From: a virus
Lineage: Duplodnaviria > Heunggongvirae > Uroviricota > Caudoviricetes
Length of the DNA stretch: 32,525 bases
Reading direction: 5' to 3' (one strand)
IMG/VR virus record: IMGVR_UViG_651053023_000008
In this document: positions 1,699 to 32,525 of the stretch, in pieces
Layout of the letters: the number at the start of each line of letters is the position of its first letter
Numbering within the stretch: position 1 is the first letter of the stretch
Translations under genes and position numbers: made by a program
Notes under the pieces: generated by a model
Database searches by the model: none
Told to the model about the DNA's origin: nothing
Seen by the model: the letters and a program-made list of their open reading frames with translations, nothing else

Positions 1699-1826
1699 CA
1701 ATCATTCTCCTTTGGCGAAACCGAATAAAACGGTATTCAAGTATCAGAAAACCTTAGTTCAGGATCGCACTAGCTGCATGATCGAAATCTCATTCTGCGA
1801 ACTGTCAGGCATTTTAGAAAAGGGAA

Positions 1827-2010
1827 TGTATTGATTCACTTGAAGTACGAAAAAAACCGGGAGGACATTGGATTATTCGGGATTTGGCGGGATTAGATTT
1901 TGTGGGGCTTGCAAGCCTGTAGGACAGATTTTAGCCGTTACATCTTGAAACGCGAAAGATTGTTGGAAACAGCTTTTGATTCATTAAAGACACGAAAAGC
2001 AATTACTTCA
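1827..2010 (+). repeat. attL region with three candidate MuA end-binding sites (L1 about 1831-1853, L2 about 1944-1965, L3 about 1976-2000; approximate)
   Basis: Repeated ..TTCA..GAAG/AAAG..CGAAA(A/G) motifs (tgattcacttgaagtacgaaaaa; cttgaaacgcgaaagat; ttgattcattaaagacacgaaaag) resembling the MuA end-site consensus. Confidence 0.55.
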
Positions 2011-7074: not shown

Positions 7075-7363
7075 ATGATACCCCCTCGTAAAAGATGGTC
7101 ACGTGAAGACCGGGAATTTATCGAAGCCAGTGTCGGGAAAATGACTGTTGAAGAAATGGCGAAAAAAACTGAACGTTGCCCCAACCGCCCTACAGGCACA
7201 TGCCAGAAGACACGGAATATCGTTGTGTGCATACCGGGTCAGTGAGCACGACAAATATTTGTGTCGTGAACTTTATAAAGAAGGGCTGGATATTCATGTC
7301 ATTACCCAAAAGATGGAATTAAGCAATCGTGCTGTATCCAGCATTGTATACAGCGAATATTAA
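7075..7363 (+). pseudogene. small HTH-like early gene split by a +1 frameshift in an A7 run (7162-7168)
   Basis: ATG 7075 with an AGGAGGG ribosome-binding site reads to a stop at 7245; ORF 7148..7363 continues in the next frame. Removing one A gives a single 95-aa product ...MTVEEMAKKLNVAPTALQAHARRHGISL.... Confidence 0.45.
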
Positions 7364-19749: not shown

Positions 19750-19832
19750 CCCGTCATCCGTAATCTGTTGTAACCCGCAATGACTGGCTGATTAGCTGTA
19801 TCGGCACCAACCTGTCACCGCACCCGGCGTGG

Positions 19833-20435: not shown

Positions 20436-20783
20436 ATGGCAAAAATTCTTGGCATGGCGACCATTCGCGTGAATGGCCGCGAAATTAAAACCGAGGGGAA
20501 ATCCACGCTGAATCCGGGCGGCTTCAGTCGCACCCAGCATATGGGCGGCGGCAAGGTCTGGGGTATCTCCAGCAAGATGGCCTCGCCGTCCATCAAGGTG
20601 ACCATTGCGGCGGCAGCGGATATGGACGTGATTGAAATCAGCAGCTGGGAAGACGTCACGGTGATGTTCTACGGCGACAACGGCCTGAACTACATGATGA
20701 CGGGTCCGCCACGGATAACCCGGCGGAGCTGGACGAGGATTCCGGCACCATCAGTGCGAACTTTATCGGTGAAAAATGCGTGA
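20436..20783 (+). CDS. tail tube protein (Mu M-like)
   Basis: 115 aa directly upstream of the chaperone and tape-measure genes. An alternative 3' end in another frame would stop at 20791. Confidence 0.55.
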   Translation: MAKILGMATIRVNGREIKTEGKSTLNPGGFSRTQHMGGGKVWGISSKMASPSIKVTIAAAADMDVIEISSWEDVTVMFYGDNGLNYMMTGPPRITRRSWTRIPAPSVRTLSVKNA

Positions 20784-20792
20784 AGGTGTGAC

Positions 20793-21288
20793 ATGGCTGA
20801 AATGGAATTTGAACTGAAACACGGGCTTCTGACCGGCAAAGGCACGGCAGATGAAACCCTGCATAAAACCGTGAAGCTGCGCGAACTGACCGCCAGTGAT
20901 GTGATTGATGCACAACTGGCCGCAGAACGCGTCGTCATGGGCGGGAACGGAAAGGCGGTGGCCTACTGCTCTGAAGTGCTGATGGGGCTGGAGATGATGC
21001 GCCGTCAGGTTGCGGCCATCGGCAGCATTCCCGGCCCGCTGGACATGAAACAGCTGCGAATGCTCCACCCGGCAGACCTTGAGCTTATCAGCACGAAAGC
21101 CGCTGCGCTGGATGACATGCTTGAGGAGGTGGCAACGCGGGGGCGAACTGATGCCGCTGGCGGCGGCACTGATGAACCTGCTGGTTAACCTGTCCCAGCG
21201 ATTCAGCATTCAGTACCTGGAACAGCTGCCCCTGCGGCAGCTGTTCCGCCTGATAAAGCAACTGGAGAAACAGCATGGCAACAGGTAA
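20793..21288 (+). CDS. tail assembly chaperone with a putative programmed frameshift (short product 20793-21188; extended product to 21288)
   Basis: Two overlapping frames; the second frame has no independent ribosome-binding site and ends at the tape-measure start. G5 run at 21139-21143. Confidence 0.6.
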
Positions 21289-23122
21289 CCGTCTCAGCAC
21301 GGAAATCATGATCAACCTTGCCGGGAACCTGACCGCCAAAGCCCGGCAATACGGCGCAAATATGTCGCAGTTCGCCCGGAATCATCAGAAGGCCATGCGC
21401 CTTGTCAAAGCCACAACGGAGGCCGCAGGACGCGGCCTTGATACGCTGGGTAACCGCTACACGGCGATGATTGCCGGGTTCGGTGGTGGTATGACCCTTA
21501 AAGGCCTGACAGATTTTGATGCACAAATCCGCCGTGCGGGTACAAATGCAAAACTGACCGATGAGCAGGTATCCCGTTTAAGAAAAAACATCCGGGAAAC
21601 AGCCAGAATGTCAGACATTCGCCTCAGTGCGCAGGTTTTACTGGAAGGCCAGGATGCACTGTATGGCCTGACAGGTAAGCCGGAATTTGTTGAAAAAAAT
21701 ATCCGCAATCAGGGGCTGGCCACGCAGGCATTCGGGACTGCGCCACAGGATGTCGCGGCACTGATGGCACAGATGTCCGAAAAACAGATTGAAGATCCTC
21801 AGGAAGTTGAAGACATGTTCGACCGCTTCTACCACCAGTTTTCCATTGGTTCGGTTGGTGTGGATCAACTGGCGCGCGTATCAGCAAAACTGTTTTCGAT
21901 TTATACCGGTGGTGGCAAAGAGGCGATGGCCCAGTTGGGGGCACTTGAGCAGATGCTGGCGAAAACAACCGGTTCTGCAGATGAAGCGGTAACCGCGCTG
22001 AACAGTATCTGGAGTGAAGTCACCCGAAAAGACAACATCAAGTTTCTGAAAAGAAACGGTGTTGATGTGCTTGATCCAGTCACAGGGAAACCCCGTCTGC
22101 CCTATGACGTGATCAGAGACGTTGTCAGGCGGGCAAAATTTAATGAGCAGAATTTGCAGGATGTTTTCGGGGACACCTCCATGCGGGGATTAAGGGCGCT
22201 GTCCAGTGAAGAAGCCCTTCAGTTAACAGAAAAAATGATTTACGCCCCGGTTGAATCCGGTGCCATGAAAAAAGCCGCGGAGAAAAACGCCCAGAGTTTT
22301 CAGTCTGCGATGCAGTCCCTGAAGAATGAATATGAGGTTTTTGCTGAAAAAAATCTGGCAAAACCCGTTCAGGACCTGGCGGATGCGCTCAACAGCGTGG
22401 ACCAGAACACCGTCCAGAACTGGTTGCAGGTCGGTAAATATATGGCGATTGCTGTGGGCGGCATTATCGCCATCCGAAAAACGTACCAGTTAGGTAAAAC
22501 CCTCCACGACATCATGAATCCCAAAGGGAAAGGCAAAGGAATACCCGGTGGCATTACAGATGTTTTCGGCTCCGGTGTGATGCCGGTTTATGTGGTTAAT
22601 ATGGGCAGTGGCGGGATGAATGGTAATACCGGCGGTCTGCCGGATACACCAGATTCATCGCGCAATCCCCGCAATCCTCGGGGGCCGGGTAACCGTGGAG
22701 GAAAGGCAGGTAAAGGCGCTGGCATCATTGCCGGTGCTCTGGAGTTTTACGATTTTCTGACCACACAATACGCCCTGCCGGGTGAGGTTGACAGTCTCAC
22801 TAAATCCGTTGCCGGTGATGCCAGCGCCAGCCCGCGGGAGCGCGAGTTCGCGCAACAGAGTCAGGACAACCAGAAAGCGCTCGAGTCCGTCTGGCGTAAG
22901 GTAACGGACTGGTTTGACTCGCTGAACGGGAAGAACATCGGCGGGATGCCGTCATGGGGTGGAATGCAACCCTCGCAGCTTGCACCGTTTCTTTCTCAAC
23001 AATTGCAGGGGGAAATCCGCGTGGTGGTGGAAGGTGACGCCCGCGTGAAAAGTGTCAGAGTGGATCAACCCGGCGTCAGACTCAGTGCGCAGGCTGGCGT
23101 CACCAGCGTGGAGCAAGGGTAA
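21275..23122 (+). CDS. tail tape measure protein
   Basis: 615 aa; helical with a Gly-rich hydrophobic segment; preceded by the frameshifted chaperone. Confidence 0.75.
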   Translation: MATGNRLSTEIMINLAGNLTAKARQYGANMSQFARNHQKAMRLVKATTEAAGRGLDTLGNRYTAMIAGFGGGMTLKGLTDFDAQIRRAGTNAKLTDEQVSRLRKNIRETARMSDIRLSAQVLLEGQDALYGLTGKPEFVEKNIRNQGLATQAFGTAPQDVAALMAQMSEKQIEDPQEVEDMFDRFYHQFSIGSVGVDQLARVSAKLFSIYTGGGKEAMAQLGALEQMLAKTTGSADEAVTALNSIWSEVTRKDNIKFLKRNGVDVLDPVTGKPRLPYDVIRDVVRRAKFNEQNLQDVFGDTSMRGLRALSSEEALQLTEKMIYAPVESGAMKKAAEKNAQSFQSAMQSLKNEYEVFAEKNLAKPVQDLADALNSVDQNTVQNWLQVGKYMAIAVGGIIAIRKTYQLGKTLHDIMNPKGKGKGIPGGITDVFGSGVMPVYVVNMGSGGMNGNTGGLPDTPDSSRNPRNPRGPGNRGGKAGKGAGIIAGALEFYDFLTTQYALPGEVDSLTKSVAGDASASPREREFAQQSQDNQKALESVWRKVTDWFDSLNGKNIGGMPSWGGMQPSQLAPFLSQQLQGEIRVVVEGDARVKSVRVDQPGVRLSAQAGVTSVEQG

Positions 23123-24396
23123 TGACAACAGGCAATGGCAAATGGGACGGGCTGCGCGACGCCTCGTTTCGCGGCGTTCCCTTCTTTCTGGTGGATACAG
23201 AAGGCACCGGTGGCCGCAGGGCTATTCCCCGTGCTTACCCCCGGCGTGAAACCGCCTGGACGGATGATAACGGGGCCGTTCCCGGTCAACAACAGATTAA
23301 CGCAAAGCTGCCAGGTAAAAACTTCCGGGATGATTTAAACGCCCTTTTAGACGCGCTCAATACCCCAGGCCCCGGCGAGCTTATCCACCCGTGGTTCGGG
23401 ATACAGACCGTACAGGTTGGCAAGGTCACTCATCGCCTCAGCACGGAGGAAGACGGCATTGCGTATGTCACCTTTGAAGTGTTTGAGGCAGGCGAGCGCC
23501 TGTTCCCGTCTGCGGCGGATAACACGCAGCAGGAAGTGCTAACGGGCATTGATGCGGTGAAAGCCGCCATTGACGATGGCGACTGGTTCGGCGCACTCGA
23601 CGGGCTGGGTGAGATGGCCGACAGCTTTCTGGCCGATATGGAAAACCTTGTGGCTAACCTGCCCACGCTACCGGCAGCACTGAATCAGTGGATGGACAGG
23701 CTGAACCATTTTAAGGAGATGGCCGGAACCATCATTGCCACGCCGGGGCGTCTGGTCAGTGAGTTGTCCTCGTTCATCGACGGCGTGGTTGATCTGGTGA
23801 CGGAACCACCCGAAGCACTCGCGGTTTACACGACATTACGCAACCAGTGGGTCGGAGAACGCGCCCGACAGGTTGCCACCGGCGCACTGCCGGAAGATAT
23901 CACCGTGAAGCCAGGCAGCGTGGCAGACGGCGAAATCGGCTTTGCCATCGGTCTGTCACCGGGTTATCAGCCGGTATCTGACAGCCTGCAAAAGAACATT
24001 GATGACTTCCGCCAGGTGGTTGTGCTGGAAACCCTGCTGGGACAGGCAAATGCCGTGGCCTCGATGACGTTCGATACCAGTGATGCGGCATTATCTGCTG
24101 GTGACACGCTGGCGGCTGAACTGCATGAGCAGGCGGTGGCGGCGGTGGAAAATAACCAGCGGGCATTATGGCGAACGCTGCGCGATTTACGGCAGGCCGT
24201 GATTACGGATGCCCGCGAGCGTGCCGCCCGTCTGCCGGAAACCCGACAGGTGACGCTGACCACAACCACATCTGCCGCATTGCTGGCATGGCGCGAACAT
24301 GGTGACACAAGCCGACGGGATGAAATCGTGCAGCGTAACCGCCTGCGCCATCCGTCATTCATCCTGCCAACGCAACCAGTGGAGATTACCGACTGA
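23122..24396 (+). CDS. P: DNA circularisation protein-like tail protein (Mu P family)
   Basis: 424 aa; N-terminal region resembles the Mu gp43 N-terminal domain; position after the tape measure. Confidence 0.65.
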   Translation: MTTGNGKWDGLRDASFRGVPFFLVDTEGTGGRRAIPRAYPRRETAWTDDNGAVPGQQQINAKLPGKNFRDDLNALLDALNTPGPGELIHPWFGIQTVQVGKVTHRLSTEEDGIAYVTFEVFEAGERLFPSAADNTQQEVLTGIDAVKAAIDDGDWFGALDGLGEMADSFLADMENLVANLPTLPAALNQWMDRLNHFKEMAGTIIATPGRLVSELSSFIDGVVDLVTEPPEALAVYTTLRNQWVGERARQVATGALPEDITVKPGSVADGEIGFAIGLSPGYQPVSDSLQKNIDDFRQVVVLETLLGQANAVASMTFDTSDAALSAGDTLAAELHEQAVAAVENNQRALWRTLRDLRQAVITDARERAARLPETRQVTLTTTTSAALLAWREHGDTSRRDEIVQRNRLRHPSFILPTQPVEITD

Positions 24397-25467
24397 TGGA
24401 ATCCGTGATTCTTACCGTTGACGGCAAATTGTGGGAAGGCTGGACGGAAATGTCCGTCAGCCGTTCCCTGAAGGCGATTGCCGGTGAGTTTGATCTCAGT
24501 GTGACAACCCGCTGGTCAGCGGCGGCACCGCGCGTGATACGTGAGGGGCAACCCTGCACGGTCAGGCTGGGTGCGGATACCGTGCTGACAGGGTATATCG
24601 ATGATTTTATCCCCAGCTATGACGCAGATAACGTGGAGATTCGCGTCATGGGGCGCGACAAAAACCGGCGACCTGGTGGACTGCTCTGTGGTGCATTCAT
24701 CCGGGAAATGGAAAGGCGTGCGGCTGGAACAGGTAGCGGCTGATGTCTGCCGCCCGTTCGGGATAGCCGTCATCACGGAAACCCCGACCGGGGAGGCGTT
24801 TGCGTCCGTTGTTCTGGAACAGGGTGAAACGGGCTTTGAACTGCTCGACCGGCTGGCAAAACAGCGCGGCGTTCTGCTGACGTCTGACGGCGCAGGTAAC
24901 CTGATTATCACCCGCGCCTCTTCCGTTCGCGCGGGCGTGTCACTGGTGCTGGGGAAAAATATCCTCGCCGCCCGTGGGCGCTTCAGCTGGCGGGAGCGTA
25001 ACAGCCAGTACATCATCAAGGGCACCACCAGTGCCGGTGGCAAACTGTGGGACAGCCAGCCTGCCTCGATGGTGGGTGGTCGCCAGTACATCACCGAAGA
25101 CCCGGAAATTAACCGTTACCGCCCGCGCATTCTGGTCAATGAAGACAGCCTGACCGTGGGCGGGGCCAGCATTCGCGGGGAATGGTACAAAGCCCGGATG
25201 CTGGGGGAATCCCGCACGACGGAAATCACGGTGGCAGGCTGGCGCGAACAGGGCGACAGCGGCCCGCTGTGGCAGACCAACCGCCTTGTCGATATCGACG
25301 ACAGCATTCAGAACCTGAAAACCACCTGGCTGATATCCGGGGTGACCTGGACGGATGGCGCACAGGGGCGGATGACGGTTCTGGCGCTGGTTCCGCCTGA
25401 ATCACTGGATATGCCGGAAATGAAAGCGAAGACGAAGAAAACAAAGGCGGTGGCCACATGGGATTAA
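24396..25467 (+). pseudogene. baseplate hub protein (Mu Q-like) with a +1 frameshift in an A5 run (24660-24664)
   Basis: ORFs 24396..24743 and 24601..25467 join into one 357-aa product (..VMGRDKTGDLVDCSVV..) if one A is removed. Confidence 0.6.
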
Positions 25468-25994
25468 ACGCAATTGCCCGCCGTCTGCGGCTGCTGGTTG
25501 ACCGTGCCGTTGTGCGCATGGTGTCTGACAGTCTGGAGCGGCAGAACCTGCAAATCCAGACGCTGGCTGATGCCACCGACGACGACGTGGAACGCTTCCA
25601 GAACTACGGGTTTACTTCCGTTCCGCCGGAAGGTTCTGAAGCCATCGTGCTGGCCGTGGGCGGACGGCGTGACGGGCTGGTTGCCATCGCGGTGGAGGAC
25701 AAGCGATGTCGCCCGAAAGGCCTGTCCCCCGGTGATGTCCGGCTGTATCACCAGGACGGTAAATCGCATATCACGTTAAAGAAAGGCGGAATTATTGAAA
25801 TCACAGGAGAACAATTAAACGTTTCAGGGAAAACGGTAAATCTCACCGCCGACGAATTGCTGAATATTATCGGTAAACAAATGAAATTCGTCGGTCCCTG
25901 TGAATTTACTGCAGATGCCACAATCAACGGTAAATCTTTCATCAAACACATTCATAAGGACGGCGACAATGAGAAGACATCACCGCCCATATGA
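25458..25994 (+). CDS. baseplate spike protein (gpV-like)
   Basis: 178 aa, overlapping the end of the Q-like gene; position in baseplate cluster. Confidence 0.55.
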   Translation: MGLNAIARRLRLLVDRAVVRMVSDSLERQNLQIQTLADATDDDVERFQNYGFTSVPPEGSEAIVLAVGGRRDGLVAIAVEDKRCRPKGLSPGDVRLYHQDGKSHITLKKGGIIEITGEQLNVSGKTVNLTADELLNIIGKQMKFVGPCEFTADATINGKSFIKHIHKDGDNEKTSPPI

Positions 25995-26443
25995 CGACCG
26001 GAATCCGCTGGAATAATACTCTCTCACGGGGTGACATCACCGTCACCCATAACGGCCTCTCACTGGATGAGGGGCTGGTCACTCAGGTTCTTATCTGCCT
26101 TTTCACTGATGCCCGTGCTGATGACGATGATGTCATTCCAGATGGTTCCGGCGACCCGCGCGGCTGGCCGGGCGACACGTACAGCGATTTTTCGTGGGGT
26201 TCCCGCCTGTGGCTGCTTGAGCGCGAAAAACTGACGGAAGATGTCCGCCTGCGCGTGGAGGATTACGCGCGACTGTCCATGCAACCGCTGCTGCGGGCCG
26301 GTTACGCCCGTAACGCCACCGTCACGGCCAGAATCATCGTCCCTGACCGTATTGCCTTTCAGGTGGTGTTAACCCGCCCGGACAAAACCACGCTCACAAT
26401 CGAAATCACCCGCCGATGGGAGGCCACCATTAATGCCGTATGA
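25991..26443 (+). CDS. baseplate protein (Mu gp46-like)
   Basis: 150 aa, translationally coupled between the spike and J-like genes. Confidence 0.55.
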   Translation: MTTGIRWNNTLSRGDITVTHNGLSLDEGLVTQVLICLFTDARADDDDVIPDGSGDPRGWPGDTYSDFSWGSRLWLLEREKLTEDVRLRVEDYARLSMQPLLRAGYARNATVTARIIVPDRIAFQVVLTRPDKTTLTIEITRRWEATINAV

Positions 26444-27510
26444 AATCCCCACGCTGGGCAAACTGATTGCCGACGGCGAAAAAGATATTGCGTATGAACT
26501 CGGCCTGCAAAAGCTGCCGCCTGTCAGTGTTGAGCAGGCGCTGAATGTGTCATTCAGCAGTCAGGTCCGGGATTTATACGACCATCAGAGCTGGATCAAG
26601 GACCAGATAATTCCGTCCACTACGTCTGATGATGAAACCATTATCAAAAACAGCAACGTATGAAGGGGTTATCCGCAAGCAGGCCACCTTTGCCAGCGGG
26701 CCGGTGACCTTCACCAGTCAGTCCCCCATTCCGGCAGAAACCCGGATGCAGTCCGACACGAATCAGGTGTATCAGGTACTCACATCCGGCGAGGTACAGG
26801 ACGGCGAGGTCACTGTCATCGTGCAGGCTGAAGAAGCCGGTGTGGCGGGCAATCTTGCTGCCGGTGCCGTGCTGACCCTGTTATCCCCGCTACCCGGAAC
26901 GGGCAGCACAGGCGCGGTGACTGAAAGTGGCATCACCGGTGGCGCAGACATCGAATCCATCGCAGAGCTGCTGGACCGTCTGCTGTATGTGCGCCGCAAT
27001 CCCCCGGTGGGCGGTGCACTGCATGATTACGTCATCTGGGCGCGTGAAGTGCCGGGTGTCAGCCGCGCGTGGGCATGGGATGCGTGGCACGGCCCCGGCA
27101 CGGTCGGGCTGGCATGGCTTTATGATGACCGTGAAGACATTATCCCCACACGGGACGACCTGAAGACAATGGAGCAGTATCTGTTCTGCCACAAACACCC
27201 TGCCACCGGCGTGATGGTGGGCAAACCGGGCGGCATCGAGGTCTGGCCGGTGCAGGTCAGGCTGAAGAAGCTCGACCTGTCCATCCGTCTGACACCGGAC
27301 AGCCAGGCGAACAGGAACGCCGTCCGGGCAAACCTGACCGCATTGCAGAAAACGCTGGCCCCCGGTCAGATGCTGCCGGTGTCCTCGCTGCGCACGGCCA
27401 TCGGTATGACGTCCGGTATCACGGATTACTTCCTCAACATCGGGGAGGACACCACCAGTGATGTGGATGAGCTTATCACCATCGGGGAGGTGACATGGCT
27501 CACAGCGTGA
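26433..27510 (+). pseudogene. baseplate J-like protein (Mu gp47-like) with a +1 frameshift in an A5 run (26646-26650)
   Basis: ORFs 26433..26663 and 26629..27510 join into one 359-aa product (..DDETIIKTATYEGVIRKQATFASG..) if one A is removed. Confidence 0.6.
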
Positions 27511-28079
27511 CGGAATGGCTGACCGCACTGCAACAGGTCATGCCACGGGGTAAGGCATGGCCGCGTGATAACGACGCGGATTTAAACCGTTTTTTAAGGG
27601 CGCTTGCAGAGCGTTTAACCCGCGTTGAATACGACGCCTCGCGTCTGCATGTGGAGATGCGACCGGAAACCACGCTCCAGTTGCTGCCGGAGTGGGAGCA
27701 ATATCTGGCGCTGCCGGAATGCGGAATTGCCGCCACCACAACGGAAGCCCGCCGCCGGGCCGTGGTGGAGAAATACCGCCGCAAAGGCGGGCTGGCCACC
27801 TGGCAGATTGAAGCCGCTGCGGCGGCGCTGGGATTCACTATTAAGGTGACGGCCGTTCTGCCGCACCACTGCCTGCGTGACTGCATGTACCCGCTACATC
27901 CGGCGCGGTATCGCTGGCTGCTGAAAGTGGAAGTCCCGGACAAAGATGCCGGGCGGTTTACCTGTATTGATGACGTCATGACGCCATTAATCAGCGAACG
28001 GACCCGCGAGCTGGAATGCCTGCTGAAGCATTACCGGCTGGCGGGCACGGAATATGAATATTATTACACCGGAGAATAA
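27495..28079 (+). CDS. tail protein (Mu gp48-like)
   Basis: 194 aa following the J-like gene. Confidence 0.55.
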   Translation: MAHSVTEWLTALQQVMPRGKAWPRDNDADLNRFLRALAERLTRVEYDASRLHVEMRPETTLQLLPEWEQYLALPECGIAATTTEARRRAVVEKYRRKGGLATWQIEAAAAALGFTIKVTAVLPHHCLRDCMYPLHPARYRWLLKVEVPDKDAGRFTCIDDVMTPLISERTRELECLLKHYRLAGTEYEYYYTGE

Positions 28080-28082
28080 TTT

Positions 28083-28970
28083 ATGTTTCATGTGGATAAT
28101 CCGACGGGTGTGCCAGTGATGCCACCTGTCGCGGCTGAATTAAGCAAAACAACGCTTTATTTTACCGAAGGCGGGAACGGTATTCCGCCCACTTATCCGG
28201 GGCCGGACTGGTTTAATATTATTCAGTCTGAACTGCTGGAAATTCTCCGGCAGGCAAATATCAAACCGGATAAAAACACAACCGACCAGATTATGACAGC
28301 GCTGAAAAAAACTGTTTATTACGAACAGTGGTTCAGCCGGAGCTATTGCCGGATTAACCGGTCAGAATAATACGTTCCCGTATTTTACGGCGAAGACACA
28401 ATGGCATTAACGCCGCTCAGTGCTTTTGTGCGCGGTATTCTCGGGAAAAACACAGCCGGTGAAATTATCGACGCGCTTTTATTACGTGACACGGTAAATA
28501 AAGCTAATAGTGCTGTACCGAATACCCGCAGGGTCAACGGCATGGCTCTGTCTTCGGATATCACCATCAGCAACATCAGCGGCAACGCCGGAACGGCAAC
28601 CCGACTTCAGACGGCCCGCAGGATTAACAATGTGCTGTTTGATGGCAGCCGCGATATCACGATTTCTGCGGGAATGTCACAAACTGAAGGTGACAACCGT
28701 TACCAGCAAAAAAACACGGCGTCAAAAGCCGGTAATGGCTGGTTTAAGGACACGTCCACCGGGGTGATTATTCAGTGGGGGTATCTCGGCAATGCCAGTG
28801 CCGGGCTGACGTTTCCGATATCATTTCCGTCAGCATGTACCAGCATCACTATTACCAACGCATACACCCGTGCTGATTACTCTATTTCCCTGAAATCGTT
28901 ATCAGCAGCAGGTGCGACATTCAACAGCGAGAATAACGGCGTTATGTACTGGACAGCGATAGGGTATTAA
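28083..28970 (+). pseudogene. tail fibre gene (S-like) interrupted by two compensating indels (extra A in the A7 run 28305-28311; likely missing G at 28389-28390)
   Basis: Conserved fibre N-terminus (MFHVDNPTGVPVMPPVAAELSKTTLYFTEGGNGIPP). The fibre motif GLTGQNNTFPYFT is encoded in frame +1 between the two ORFs; the C-terminal ORF 28401..28970 continues with MALTPLSAFVRGILGK. Confidence 0.55.
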
Positions 28971-29410
28971 TGATGACTATTTATTTCAGCCCATCAACAA
29001 ACGGTTTTTATCATTCTGGCCTTCAGGGTGATTATGAAAATGCGGGAACGTGGCCGAATGATTTACAGGAAATCACGGATGAAGAATATCAGAGACTGTT
29101 ACAGGGCCAGACTGACGGTTTTATTATTGTATCTGGCGAAAACGGATATCCGGTATTAAAAGAACCCGTAATTAACTGGCAGCAGAAAGCGGAAACGCAA
29201 CGCCAGCACCTGCTGGCTGAAGCAAGGGAAATCACCTCCGACTGGAAAACCGAGCTGGAGCTGGGCACCATCAGCGACGATGATAAAGCCCGTCTTACGC
29301 AGTGGATGGCATATATCAAAGCGGTAAAGGCACTGGATTTAAGCACCGTTACTGACGAAGACTCCTTTTATTCCATCAACTGGCCGGAGCGTCCCGATGC
29401 CGCAGCTTAA
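28970..29410 (+). CDS. tail fibre assembly chaperone (Tfa-like)
   Basis: 146 aa immediately after the fibre gene; Tfa-like sequence. Confidence 0.7.
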   Translation: MMTIYFSPSTNGFYHSGLQGDYENAGTWPNDLQEITDEEYQRLLQGQTDGFIIVSGENGYPVLKEPVINWQQKAETQRQHLLAEAREITSDWKTELELGTISDDDKARLTQWMAYIKAVKALDLSTVTDEDSFYSINWPERPDAAA

Positions 29411-31004
29411 AGGTGTGATTAAAACGCCCACGGGAGAACCGCTGGGCGGCGCAACCATTACATTGACCTCCCTGCACAACCGCGCAGGGATTCTGAAAAG
29501 TGTTTTCAGCCATGTCACCACACAGAACGGGGAATATGACTTCCCCGTTCTGCCGGGTGTGTACAGCGTTCGCCTGACACAAAGCACACAGCGCCTTTCA
29601 GAAATCGGTGTCATCCGCGTTTATGAAGATTCAGCGGACGGTTCGTTGAATGATTTTCTGGGTGCAACCGATATTGACCTGCGCCCGGAAGCCCTGAAGA
29701 AATTCGAAGAGCTGGCGCAACAGGCGCAGCAAAGCGCAGAAGCCGCAGCGGAAAGCGAGCGACAGGCCGGGCAACATGTCGCTGATGCGCAGAAGATAAA
29801 GAAAGACTGTCAGACGCTGGCGGATAACGTACAGCAGAACGCAGAAGCCGTAGCGGCCAGCAAACAGCACGTTGAACAGCTGGCCTCAGAAGTTGAGCTG
29901 AACGCCGGGCAGGTGCAGCAGGGCGTGCAGAATGTTACTGATGCGGTAAAAAAGGCGCAGCAGGCAGCAAAGGATTCTGCTGACAGTGCCACAGATTCGA
30001 AAAACAGTGCTGACAATGCGGCACTGAGCGAACAGAACGCACAAAAACACGCGCAGAAAGCTGAACAACACGAGCAGCAGACTAAACAATATGCGCAGGA
30101 TGCAGCGACCGCCGCAGAATCAGCAGAGAACGCCAAAGGCGAAATTGACGAAATTCTGGAAGGTGGCTATCTCAAGATAAAAAACAACTTTCAGGAAATT
30201 GTTGATGCTGGCCCGTCAGCACTGGCTCAGGCCCAATGGAATTTACAGATTTCCGGGGTGAAAAATAAACAGGTAATTGCCACCCCTTATACATGGCCAT
30301 CCAGAACTGAGTATGAACAAAGGGTGCATCTGCCACTCGCCGGGGCTTACGGATTTGGCTACACATTTGAAGACCAAAGCCAGGGGCGAATAAATTTTAA
30401 TGAGGGCTATACGGCGTCGTGGTGGTCACAGTGGGCGAAACCTGGTCGTTATTACGTCAGCGCCAGTGATAAAGAATACCTCGCACCTGAAGGAGAAAGG
30501 TGGGGGATTGTTGATTTGCTGTGGCTTAATGGCAGCGGATATAACGATGCTTCGAAGGTTCTGAAGATACTGGCTTTTTACGACTCAGACGGGCACTTAC
30601 ACATAGGCAAGCGCGTTGGTCAGAGCGACTGGTCAATAAGCTGGCGCAAGCTGGCATCGCTCTCTGATGTCAGGGCCATGCTGTATTCATATATTTATAA
30701 TAATTACAACAGAGAATGGCGAGACCCGGAACTGGGAGGTTTAATTCTGGCGTCATACCAGGGAACCGCAGACGGCGACACAAATATAAAAGTATCCCGT
30801 GGTCAGACTTATCCCGGCTCGCGACTCGCTCCTGTGGCGATAGAATGCCAGTTCACCCCATCCGGCACGTATGCTGCAACACCGCGATTCTACATTACCG
30901 GCTGCAAGAGCAAATCACTCCCCGGAACTTATATTTCATTGTCTGGCGCGCCAACAACATACAGCGACCAGGCATTTGTTGCGCTATTCATGAGGATTGT
31001 ATGA
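29397..31004 (+). CDS. side tail fibre protein (lambda Stf-like N-terminus, coiled-coil shaft, C-terminal receptor-binding region)
   Basis: 535 aa; N-terminus parallels lambda Stf (..TITL......VYSV.L......IRVYEDS.DGSLNDFL); long Ala/Gln/Glu-rich helical shaft; AT-richer 3' third. Confidence 0.75.
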   Translation: MPQLKGVIKTPTGEPLGGATITLTSLHNRAGILKSVFSHVTTQNGEYDFPVLPGVYSVRLTQSTQRLSEIGVIRVYEDSADGSLNDFLGATDIDLRPEALKKFEELAQQAQQSAEAAAESERQAGQHVADAQKIKKDCQTLADNVQQNAEAVAASKQHVEQLASEVELNAGQVQQGVQNVTDAVKKAQQAAKDSADSATDSKNSADNAALSEQNAQKHAQKAEQHEQQTKQYAQDAATAAESAENAKGEIDEILEGGYLKIKNNFQEIVDAGPSALAQAQWNLQISGVKNKQVIATPYTWPSRTEYEQRVHLPLAGAYGFGYTFEDQSQGRINFNEGYTASWWSQWAKPGRYYVSASDKEYLAPEGERWGIVDLLWLNGSGYNDASKVLKILAFYDSDGHLHIGKRVGQSDWSISWRKLASLSDVRAMLYSYIYNNYNREWRDPELGGLILASYQGTADGDTNIKVSRGQTYPGSRLAPVAIECQFTPSGTYAATPRFYITGCKSKSLPGTYISLSGAPTTYSDQAFVALFMRIV

Positions 31005-31570
31005 TGCAGATTAAAGAAATCACCAGCCCCCGTTATACCGAATCCGGTGCGATTGACTGCGACGTTCTGTTTGAGGAAATGGAAGCCCCTGTTCCCTACA
31101 CTGCCACGCCGGACGATACAGCGAAAACCGGTCAGCAAATCTGGCAGGAACTGCAAAGCGGAAAATGGGGTGAAATAACCCCGTTTGCCGTCACGCCGGA
31201 ACTTATCGCAGCGGCGAAGGATGCCAAAAAACGGGAGATTGAGGCATGGCGCACAGAACAGGAGGCGCAGCCATTCACGTTCGAATGGAACGGTCGTACC
31301 TGGAATGCTGGTCCCGATTCGATGGCTCGCATTGCGCCCGTGGCAATGGCCGCAAAAGTGGCAGGTGCACGGGCAACGCTGGGGTGGGGGGATGCAGCAA
31401 ACAGCCTTGTCACCATGACAATGGCGCAGCTTCAGGAGCTGGCAGCAACAATGGCGCAGGCGCAAACCGAGCGCAATACTGTGATTTATCGTCGTCAGCG
31501 TGAGATGAAAGAGCAGCTTTCCCTGTTGACCACACTGAACGAAATAAGAGCATTCACACCCGGCGATTAA
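31001..31570 (+). CDS. tail fibre assembly protein or chaperone
   Basis: 189 aa; ATG overlaps the fibre stop. Confidence 0.55.
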   Translation: MMQIKEITSPRYTESGAIDCDVLFEEMEAPVPYTATPDDTAKTGQQIWQELQSGKWGEITPFAVTPELIAAAKDAKKREIEAWRTEQEAQPFTFEWNGRTWNAGPDSMARIAPVAMAAKVAGARATLGWGDAANSLVTMTMAQLQELAATMAQAQTERNTVIYRRQREMKEQLSLLTTLNEIRAFTPGD

Positions 31571-31693
31571 ATAATCATTTTGTATAGTTTATGACGATCG
31601 ATAACATCATATCGATCGTCGGTTTGCATCATATGTGATTAAATACCCCCAGCCCTCCGGGCGGTCATGTCTGGTTATTACACAGGGGGAATC
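31571..31693 (+). promoter_or_regulatory. com and mom promoter region with Dam GATC sites (31596-31599, 31614-31617) inside 7-bp inverted repeats
   Basis: GATCGAT ... ATCGATC arrangement directly upstream of com, consistent with the methylation-sensitive upstream region of the Mu mom operon. Confidence 0.55.
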
Positions 31694-31879
31694 ATGGACT
31701 CTGTTCGCTGTAAAAACTGCAATAAATTACTGTTTAAAGGAGGTTTTAAGCATATAGAAATTAAATGCCCTCGCTGTAAACGTTACATTGTCATATCGAA
31801 TGCCAAAGAGCATCCCACGGAGCTGTATTGTGGGAAAAGAGAAGAAATCACGCATTCTGACAAAACCCTGCGTTATTGA
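31694..31879 (+). CDS. com: Com zinc-finger translational activator of mom
   Basis: 61 aa from ATG 31694 (AGGGGGA ribosome-binding site); CKNC...x16...CPRC zinc finger; overlaps the mom start. Confidence 0.85.
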
Positions 31880-32525
31880 GTATGAAGGTCGTATTGTCGG
31901 CTATGGTTCAAAGGAGCTACGTGTTGAAACCATATCCTGCTGGCTGGCCCGCACAATCATTCAGACAAAACACTATTCCCGCCGTTTTGTGAATAACTCC
32001 TACCTGCATCTTGGCGTATTCAGCGGACGTGATCTGGTTGGCGTTCTTCAGTGGGGATATGCCCTTAACCCCAACTCAGGGCGTCGGGTCGTGCTTGAAA
32101 CGGATAACCGGGGCTATATGGAACTGAACCGCATGTGGCTACACGACGACATGCCCCGCAACTCTGAATCACGGGCTATCAGCTACGCGCTGAAAGTTAT
32201 CAGGTTACTGTATCCGTCAGTTGAGTGGGTTCAGTCTTTTGCAGACGAACGCTGCGGACGTGCTGGCGTGGTATATCAGGCGTCGAATTTTGATTTTATT
32301 GGTAGCCATGAAAGCACGTTCTACGAGCTGGACGGCGAGTGGTATCACGAGATAGCGATGAACGCGATTAAGCGCGGAGGGCAACGAGGCGAGTATTTGC
32401 GGGCTAATAAGGAGCGGGCCGTGGTACACAAATTTAATCAGTATCGCTACATCAGGTTCCTGAACAAGCGCGCAAAAAAGCGCCTAAACACCAAGCTATT
32501 CAGGATTCAGCCATACCCGAAGTGA
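31800..32525 (+). CDS. mom: Mom DNA modification protein
   Basis: ORF overlapping the 3' end of com and ending at the window edge; sequence matches Mu Mom as I recall it. Start uncertain (ATG 31800 or GTG 31830). Confidence 0.85.

Follow-up and report, generated by a model that had tools for sequence, protein, structure and literature searches.

Homopolymer miscalls as the probable cause of a split tail-fibre gene in the Mu-like prophage of Escherichia coli UMNF18

The short tail-fibre gene of a Mu-like prophage in the 32,525-bp stretch of DNA analysed here (the window) is interrupted by two one-base length changes, which are most probably homopolymer miscalls of a draft assembly, a reading to which we give a probability of about 0.7. 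The source genome is that of E. coli UMNF18, a porcine ETEC draft that we take to have been pyrosequenced (454), and the prophage lies in it between treA and dhaM. The true gene would be an intact 295-aa short tail fibre resembling Mu S, in which the draft assembly had read A6 as A7 and G3 as G2, and the same type of miscall would also have broken gp44, baseplate J, the tail tube gene and a small early gene of the prophage. Miscalls are favoured because the indels are private to one assembly, confined to homopolymers and far more numerous than substitutions; from this we infer an origin in sequencing or assembly.

Direct reading of the window confirmed all the positions given in the original prediction, namely both ORFs, the A7 run, the GG pair and the TAA stop (Table 1). 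The 95-aa and 189-aa ORFs lie in the same frame with the stop between them. The two indels are 78-84 bp apart and of opposite sign, +1 in the A run and -1 in the G run, and translation of the window with one A deleted and one G added gives a continuous 295-aa protein. Entry to the +1 segment had been predicted to need one fewer A and exit from it one extra G, which is exactly what orthologues show. The frameshifts had also been described as compensating. They do cancel, but in arithmetic only, because the stop lies in the shifted frame; functional compensation by the second indel is ruled out by the TAA at 28368, and orthologues shifted in the same way would meet its equivalent too.

Table 1. 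Coordinates in the window of the fibre gene, its parts and neighbours, and the other features discussed in the text.
Feature	Position	Strand	Details
Left prophage end, canonical for Mu	1823..1860	+	TGTATTGATTCACTTGAAGTACG...; treA-dhaM intergenic region, 5-bp target duplication GGGAA
Private A7, small early gene	7162..7168	+	A6 in 5/5 comparators
Intergenic private one-base homopolymer indel	10993		
Intergenic indel	17776		G4 to G5
Deletion junction, 2.9 kb lost	19763..19779	+	between 8-bp direct repeats AACCCGCA
Private G3, tail tube gene	20702..20704	+	G4 or G3TT in comparators; C-terminus frameshifted, 115 aa instead of 118
Private A5, gp44/baseplate hub gene split	24660..24664	+	A4 in 18/18 comparators
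Private A5, baseplate J/gp47 split into 76-aa and 293-aa ORFs	26646..26650	+	A4 in 19/19 comparators
Mu gp48-like baseplate wedge protein, intact	27495..28079	+	immediately 5' of fibre; PF10076
Whole S-like short tail-fibre gene	28083..28970	+	295 aa after -1 A at 28305-11 and +1 G at 28389-90
N-terminal ORF as deposited, 95 aa	28083..28370	+	AEJ56152.1, 'tail fiber domain protein', E. coli UMNF18
A7 run	28305..28311	+	one base longer than A6 or A5G of comparators
Segment in correct register only in +1 frame	28312..28389	+	reads LFITNSGSAGAIAGLTGQNNTFPYFT
TAA stop in shifted (deposited) frame	28368..28370	+	from AAT AAT (Asn-Asn) codons of true frame
GG, one base short	28389..28390	+	ACG GGC or ACC GGC in orthologues
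C-terminal ORF as deposited, 189 aa	28401..28970	+	AEJ56153.1, UMNF18_1557; receptor-binding part and Gp53-like C domain
Tail-fibre assembly protein, intact	28970..29410	+	directly 3' of fibre; Caudo_TAP, PF02413

Homology and gene order both identify the interrupted gene as the S-like tail fibre that had been predicted. The first ~200 aa of the repaired fibre are 32% identical to Mu S (BLASTP, E = 3e-24), residues 225-295 form the Pfam domain Gp53-like_C (PF21882), and the gene sits between a gp48 homologue and a fibre assembly protein, an order that the annotated orthologous prophages have in common with the window. The likeness to phage Mu extends to the gene order gp47-gp48-fibre-assembly protein and to the homologous N-terminal ~200 aa of S (gp49), which has U as its chaperone, whereas Mu S is 504 aa long and the window fibre 295 aa, with a Gp53-like domain as its C-terminus. 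Mu also carries an invertible G segment and the gin invertase, and the window prophage has neither: in the window and its annotated relatives, no G segment with alternative C-termini and no gin invertase were found between the fibre and com/mom.

The window prophage belongs to the Mu family and encodes a repressor, transposases A and B, gam, mor and lysis genes, as well as terminase, portal, head genes, a contractile tail, baseplate, com and mom; its early region is ~90% identical to D108/Mu. At 29397-31570 lie another fibre gene, resembling lambda Stf (535 aa, with phage_tail_N and CarboxypepD_reg), and after it a DUF4376 gene, which together occupy the place of the Mu G segment and gin ahead of com/mom, so that each prophage of this family has two different fibre-like proteins and no invertase. 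The region 20793-21290 holds the tail assembly chaperone gene (131 aa), which in relatives is overlapped at its end by a 45-aa ORF, a layout typical of the conserved programmed frameshift in tail chaperones.

Alignment with orthologous loci indicated that the window is the exception at both sites. All of the loci aligned, about 45, have one base fewer in the A run (A6 or A5G) and one more at the second site (ACGGGC or ACCGGC), and 25 of 25 comparators support an extra A in the window. Complete E. coli genomes hold many relatives, with 89-97% identity across the first ~580 nt of the fibre gene. The receptor-binding C-terminus is exchanged among relatives after about nt 580-594.

A protein search with the fibre gave 391 homologues at E <= 1e-10, the best of which is 295 aa long and 96% identical. 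Whether orthologous fibres lack the motif segment had been named as a test of the prediction; they carry it, as PYF(T/A/S) is present in 101 of 101 N-terminally complete homologues among the best 120 of the 391 matches listed, and 38 of these 101 have exactly AGAIAGLTGQNNTFPYFTGEDTMALT, the sequence of the repaired window. The description of this segment as a conserved fibre motif holds among close orthologues but does not extend to Mu S, which is without the GLTG..N.FPYFT motif at the aligned position, while the window fibre has it in the +1 frame. The repaired 295-aa fibre is 100% identical over its full length to a protein, P0139, encoded on 21 contigs of other isolates, an identity far beyond chance.

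The interrupted form was restricted to UMNF18. Among ~15 billion proteins, the 95-aa and 189-aa fragments were represented only by AEJ56152.1 and AEJ56153.1, both from this strain. Exact look-ups of the frameshifted products on contigs of other assemblies gave no match, and neither did exact-pattern scans for the A7 allele in viral, species-representative genome and metagenome contigs. Among the aligned orthologous loci the only other A7 was that of ETEC1703. Over 6.6 kb the ETEC1703 and ETEC1732 sequences differ by 0 mismatches and 2 homopolymer indels, one of which sits in the same fibre A run as that of the window. Because these two otherwise identical sequences differ there by one base, the fibre A run is demonstrably prone to length miscalls. 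In RefSeq the ETEC1703 fibre is annotated as two CDSs, with exactly the split of the window.

Comparison with isolates that carry the same insertion is more direct. Contigs encoding P0139 include L044 (GCA_011822295.1) and L046 (GCA_040135965.1), in which the right end of the prophage abuts dhaM, at about 9420-9440 in L044. With the junction marked by a slash, the right end in both reads ..GCCGCTTCA/GGGAATTAAAGG, i.e. CTTCA/GGGAATTAAAGG, and the left junction in the window reads ..AAAAGGGAA/TGTATTGATTCAC, i.e. GGGAA/TGTATTG; with the empty site, AGAAAAGGGAATTAAAGG, the two junctions define one insertion with a 5-bp duplication, GGGAA. Junctions and empty site agree, and L044 and L046 therefore hold the same prophage by descent. 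Both fibre indels are absent from these two assemblies. Aligned with L046 and L049, window positions 26932-32525 (5,594 bp) have 0 mismatches and, as their only gaps, the two fibre indels, and aligned with L044, positions 24307-32525 (8.2 kb) have 2 mismatches and 4 homopolymer indels.

The pair of fibre indels had been presented as a feature of one gene; the pair is there in the sequence, but it is not isolated and belongs to a window-wide set of private homopolymer indels. Alignment to relatives, with gaps left-normalised before counting since their placement differed between comparators, revealed six private coding indels in the window, all of them homopolymer length changes and four of them +A (Table 1). 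Private substitutions in the window are almost absent. The repaired gp44 and J are 100% identical to proteins of other isolates (P0209 and P0208, respectively).

In E. coli mutation-accumulation spectra, indels make up ~10-20% of neutral mutations. If that proportion applied here, the probability that 2 of 2 events are indels would be 0.01-0.04, and that at least 4 of 6 are would be 0.001-0.017. With six indels placed at random, the probability of a pair of opposite sign within 84 bp is about 0.04, and the mild clustering of the fibre pair is explained equally well by chance and by locally poor coverage.

A further lesion of the prophage is a 2.9-kb deletion that begins shortly beyond the major head gene and ends halfway through the sheath gene, taking with it the head-tail joining genes, the gene for virion morphogenesis, DUF2635 and the first 294 codons of the sheath. 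The identical deletion junction is present in L030 (SRR26621191), an independent assembly, but the tube gene of L030 is intact at 118 aa. Because the same junction recurs in L030, the deletion is real, and the prophage is defective; the recurrence also means that the defective prophage is in circulation in more than a single isolate.

UMNF18 proteins AEJ57799-AEJ57811, which lie outside the window, represent a second copy of the prophage that has the sheath deletion in common with the first. GenBank protein numbering suggests that the second copy has the tube frameshift and is without the gp44 and J proteins. It has one fibre protein (AEJ57808 by numbering) instead of two. AEJ57808 was compared with the repaired 295-aa fibre, with the 95-aa and 189-aa fragments and with the 108-aa product expected from A6 and GG, and none of these matches.

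The alternative that deserves most attention, which we regard as possible but doubtful, is that the indels are real slippage mutations private to the UMNF18 lineage, that the prophage has been unselected since the 2.9-kb deletion, and that the fibre is a true pseudogene. The deletion, which lies between 8-bp direct repeats, is real and common to L030, and homopolymers are natural slippage hotspots; the prophage is truly defective, so real frameshifts could accumulate in it without cost. For a consensus error, moreover, an A4 run read as A5 is short. The tube frameshift and the missing gp44 and J proteins in both UMNF18 copies, as far as numbering tells, would make the mutations older than the intragenomic duplication, but the same two-copy picture would result from a collapsed-repeat consensus entered at both sites. 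The frameshifted products occur in no other assembly and the sister isolates are intact: those with the same insertion have none of the four indels that the window shows beyond 24.3 kb, and only 0-2 substitutions over 5.6-8.2 kb separate them from it, and L030 has the deletion yet retains a full-length tube gene. Private slippage would also require the two fibre events, opposite in sign and 84 bp apart, to have coincided by chance (P about 0.04, as above), and the indel excess is improbable under known mutation spectra (P about 0.001-0.04).

Each of these two explanations has known counterparts. The frameshift pseudogenes of cryptic E. coli and Shigella prophages resemble the window in combining a disabling internal deletion with several interrupted structural genes, but the window differs from them in having clonal relatives without the frameshifts and almost no substitution load. 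Homopolymer consensus errors, of the kind found in pyrosequencing and long-read drafts and flagged 'frameshifted' by annotation pipelines, resemble it in affecting mononucleotide runs only, in being absent from independent assemblies and in having indels far above substitutions, with a parallel case in ETEC1703 and ETEC1732 at the same A run. The window differs in that two of its runs are only 4 nt long and in that ~1 indel per 4-5 kb is high for a consensus.

A functional split, whether by programmed frameshifting, transcriptional slippage or phase variation or as a two-piece fibre with an adaptor and a receptor-binding part, is in our judgement highly improbable. Slippage of tRNA-Lys by +1 on AAA AAA A would bring translation into the correct frame, and the ATG at 28401 opens the C-terminal ORF, but ahead of that ATG there is only a weak GAAG, the exit site TTT ACG GCG AAG is without a slippery motif, and two shifts are needed. 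Neither shift is conserved: in ~45 loci, and in 101 N-terminally complete homologues among the matches listed, the gene is in one frame. Runs known to produce transcriptional slippage efficiently, or phase variation, in E. coli are longer than A7. With several other tail genes of the prophage broken likewise and its sheath deleted, no tail could form anyway. Programmed or transcriptional frameshifting at A7 was rejected for the lack of conservation in relatives, the lack of a slippery second site and the need for two shifts, and phase variation on these same grounds together with the deleted sheath and the other broken tail genes. The programmed frameshifts of tail genes known from the tail assembly chaperone G/GT resemble the window fibre in using two overlapping frames for one protein, but those sites are conserved and involve a single shift, whereas no relative of the window fibre is shifted and its two shifts are opposite.

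We give equally little credence to the idea that both indels are real and stem from one event, such as imprecise recombination or a repair patch, or that a 95-aa adaptor and a 189-aa fragment serve as a two-piece fibre. The fibre has a mosaic structure produced by recombination, and the crossover from L007-like to L009-like alleles, at 28384-28424, spans the second indel. Recombination as the source of the indels was nonetheless rejected, as intact sisters with the same insertion carry the same mosaic without the indels. Around window positions 28240-28425, the 5' part of the fibre gene is like L001/L007-type alleles, and all the sequence after about 28392 is identical to the L009 type.

With homopolymer miscalls as the preferred reading, the UMNF18 fibre, gp44, J, tube and early gene are best flagged for quality, as genes that would be intact apart from miscalls or that carry at most strain-private lesions. 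The frameshifts of the window should not be taken as recoding, phase variation or truncation of the fibre, and automated pseudogene counts or inferences of prophage decay made from the UMNF18 assembly would be inflated. Were the indels real, they would represent ordinary slippage decay in a prophage already disabled by deletion. The biological significance of the split fibre is low.

Several related prophages carry lesions or rearrangements of their own. At position 10730 of L007 (Logan ERR12450820), the fibre has lost 4 bp (TTTC) from its C-terminal domain and is frameshifted to a product of 268 aa (P0003), which is either an independent lesion or an error in the same gene. A related prophage in L012 lies ~1.7 kb from treA and is oriented the opposite way; it is apparently a nearby but separate insertion. 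At ~2.81-2.85 Mb of AP027411.1 (L013, L014, L027 and L028) there are two truncated copies of the prophage family, inverted and ~15 kb apart, in an arrangement that looks like a transposition-associated rearrangement. In each of these copies a 676-aa ORF fuses the region of a Mu F-like head gene with baseplate J, and the 295-aa fibres are intact.
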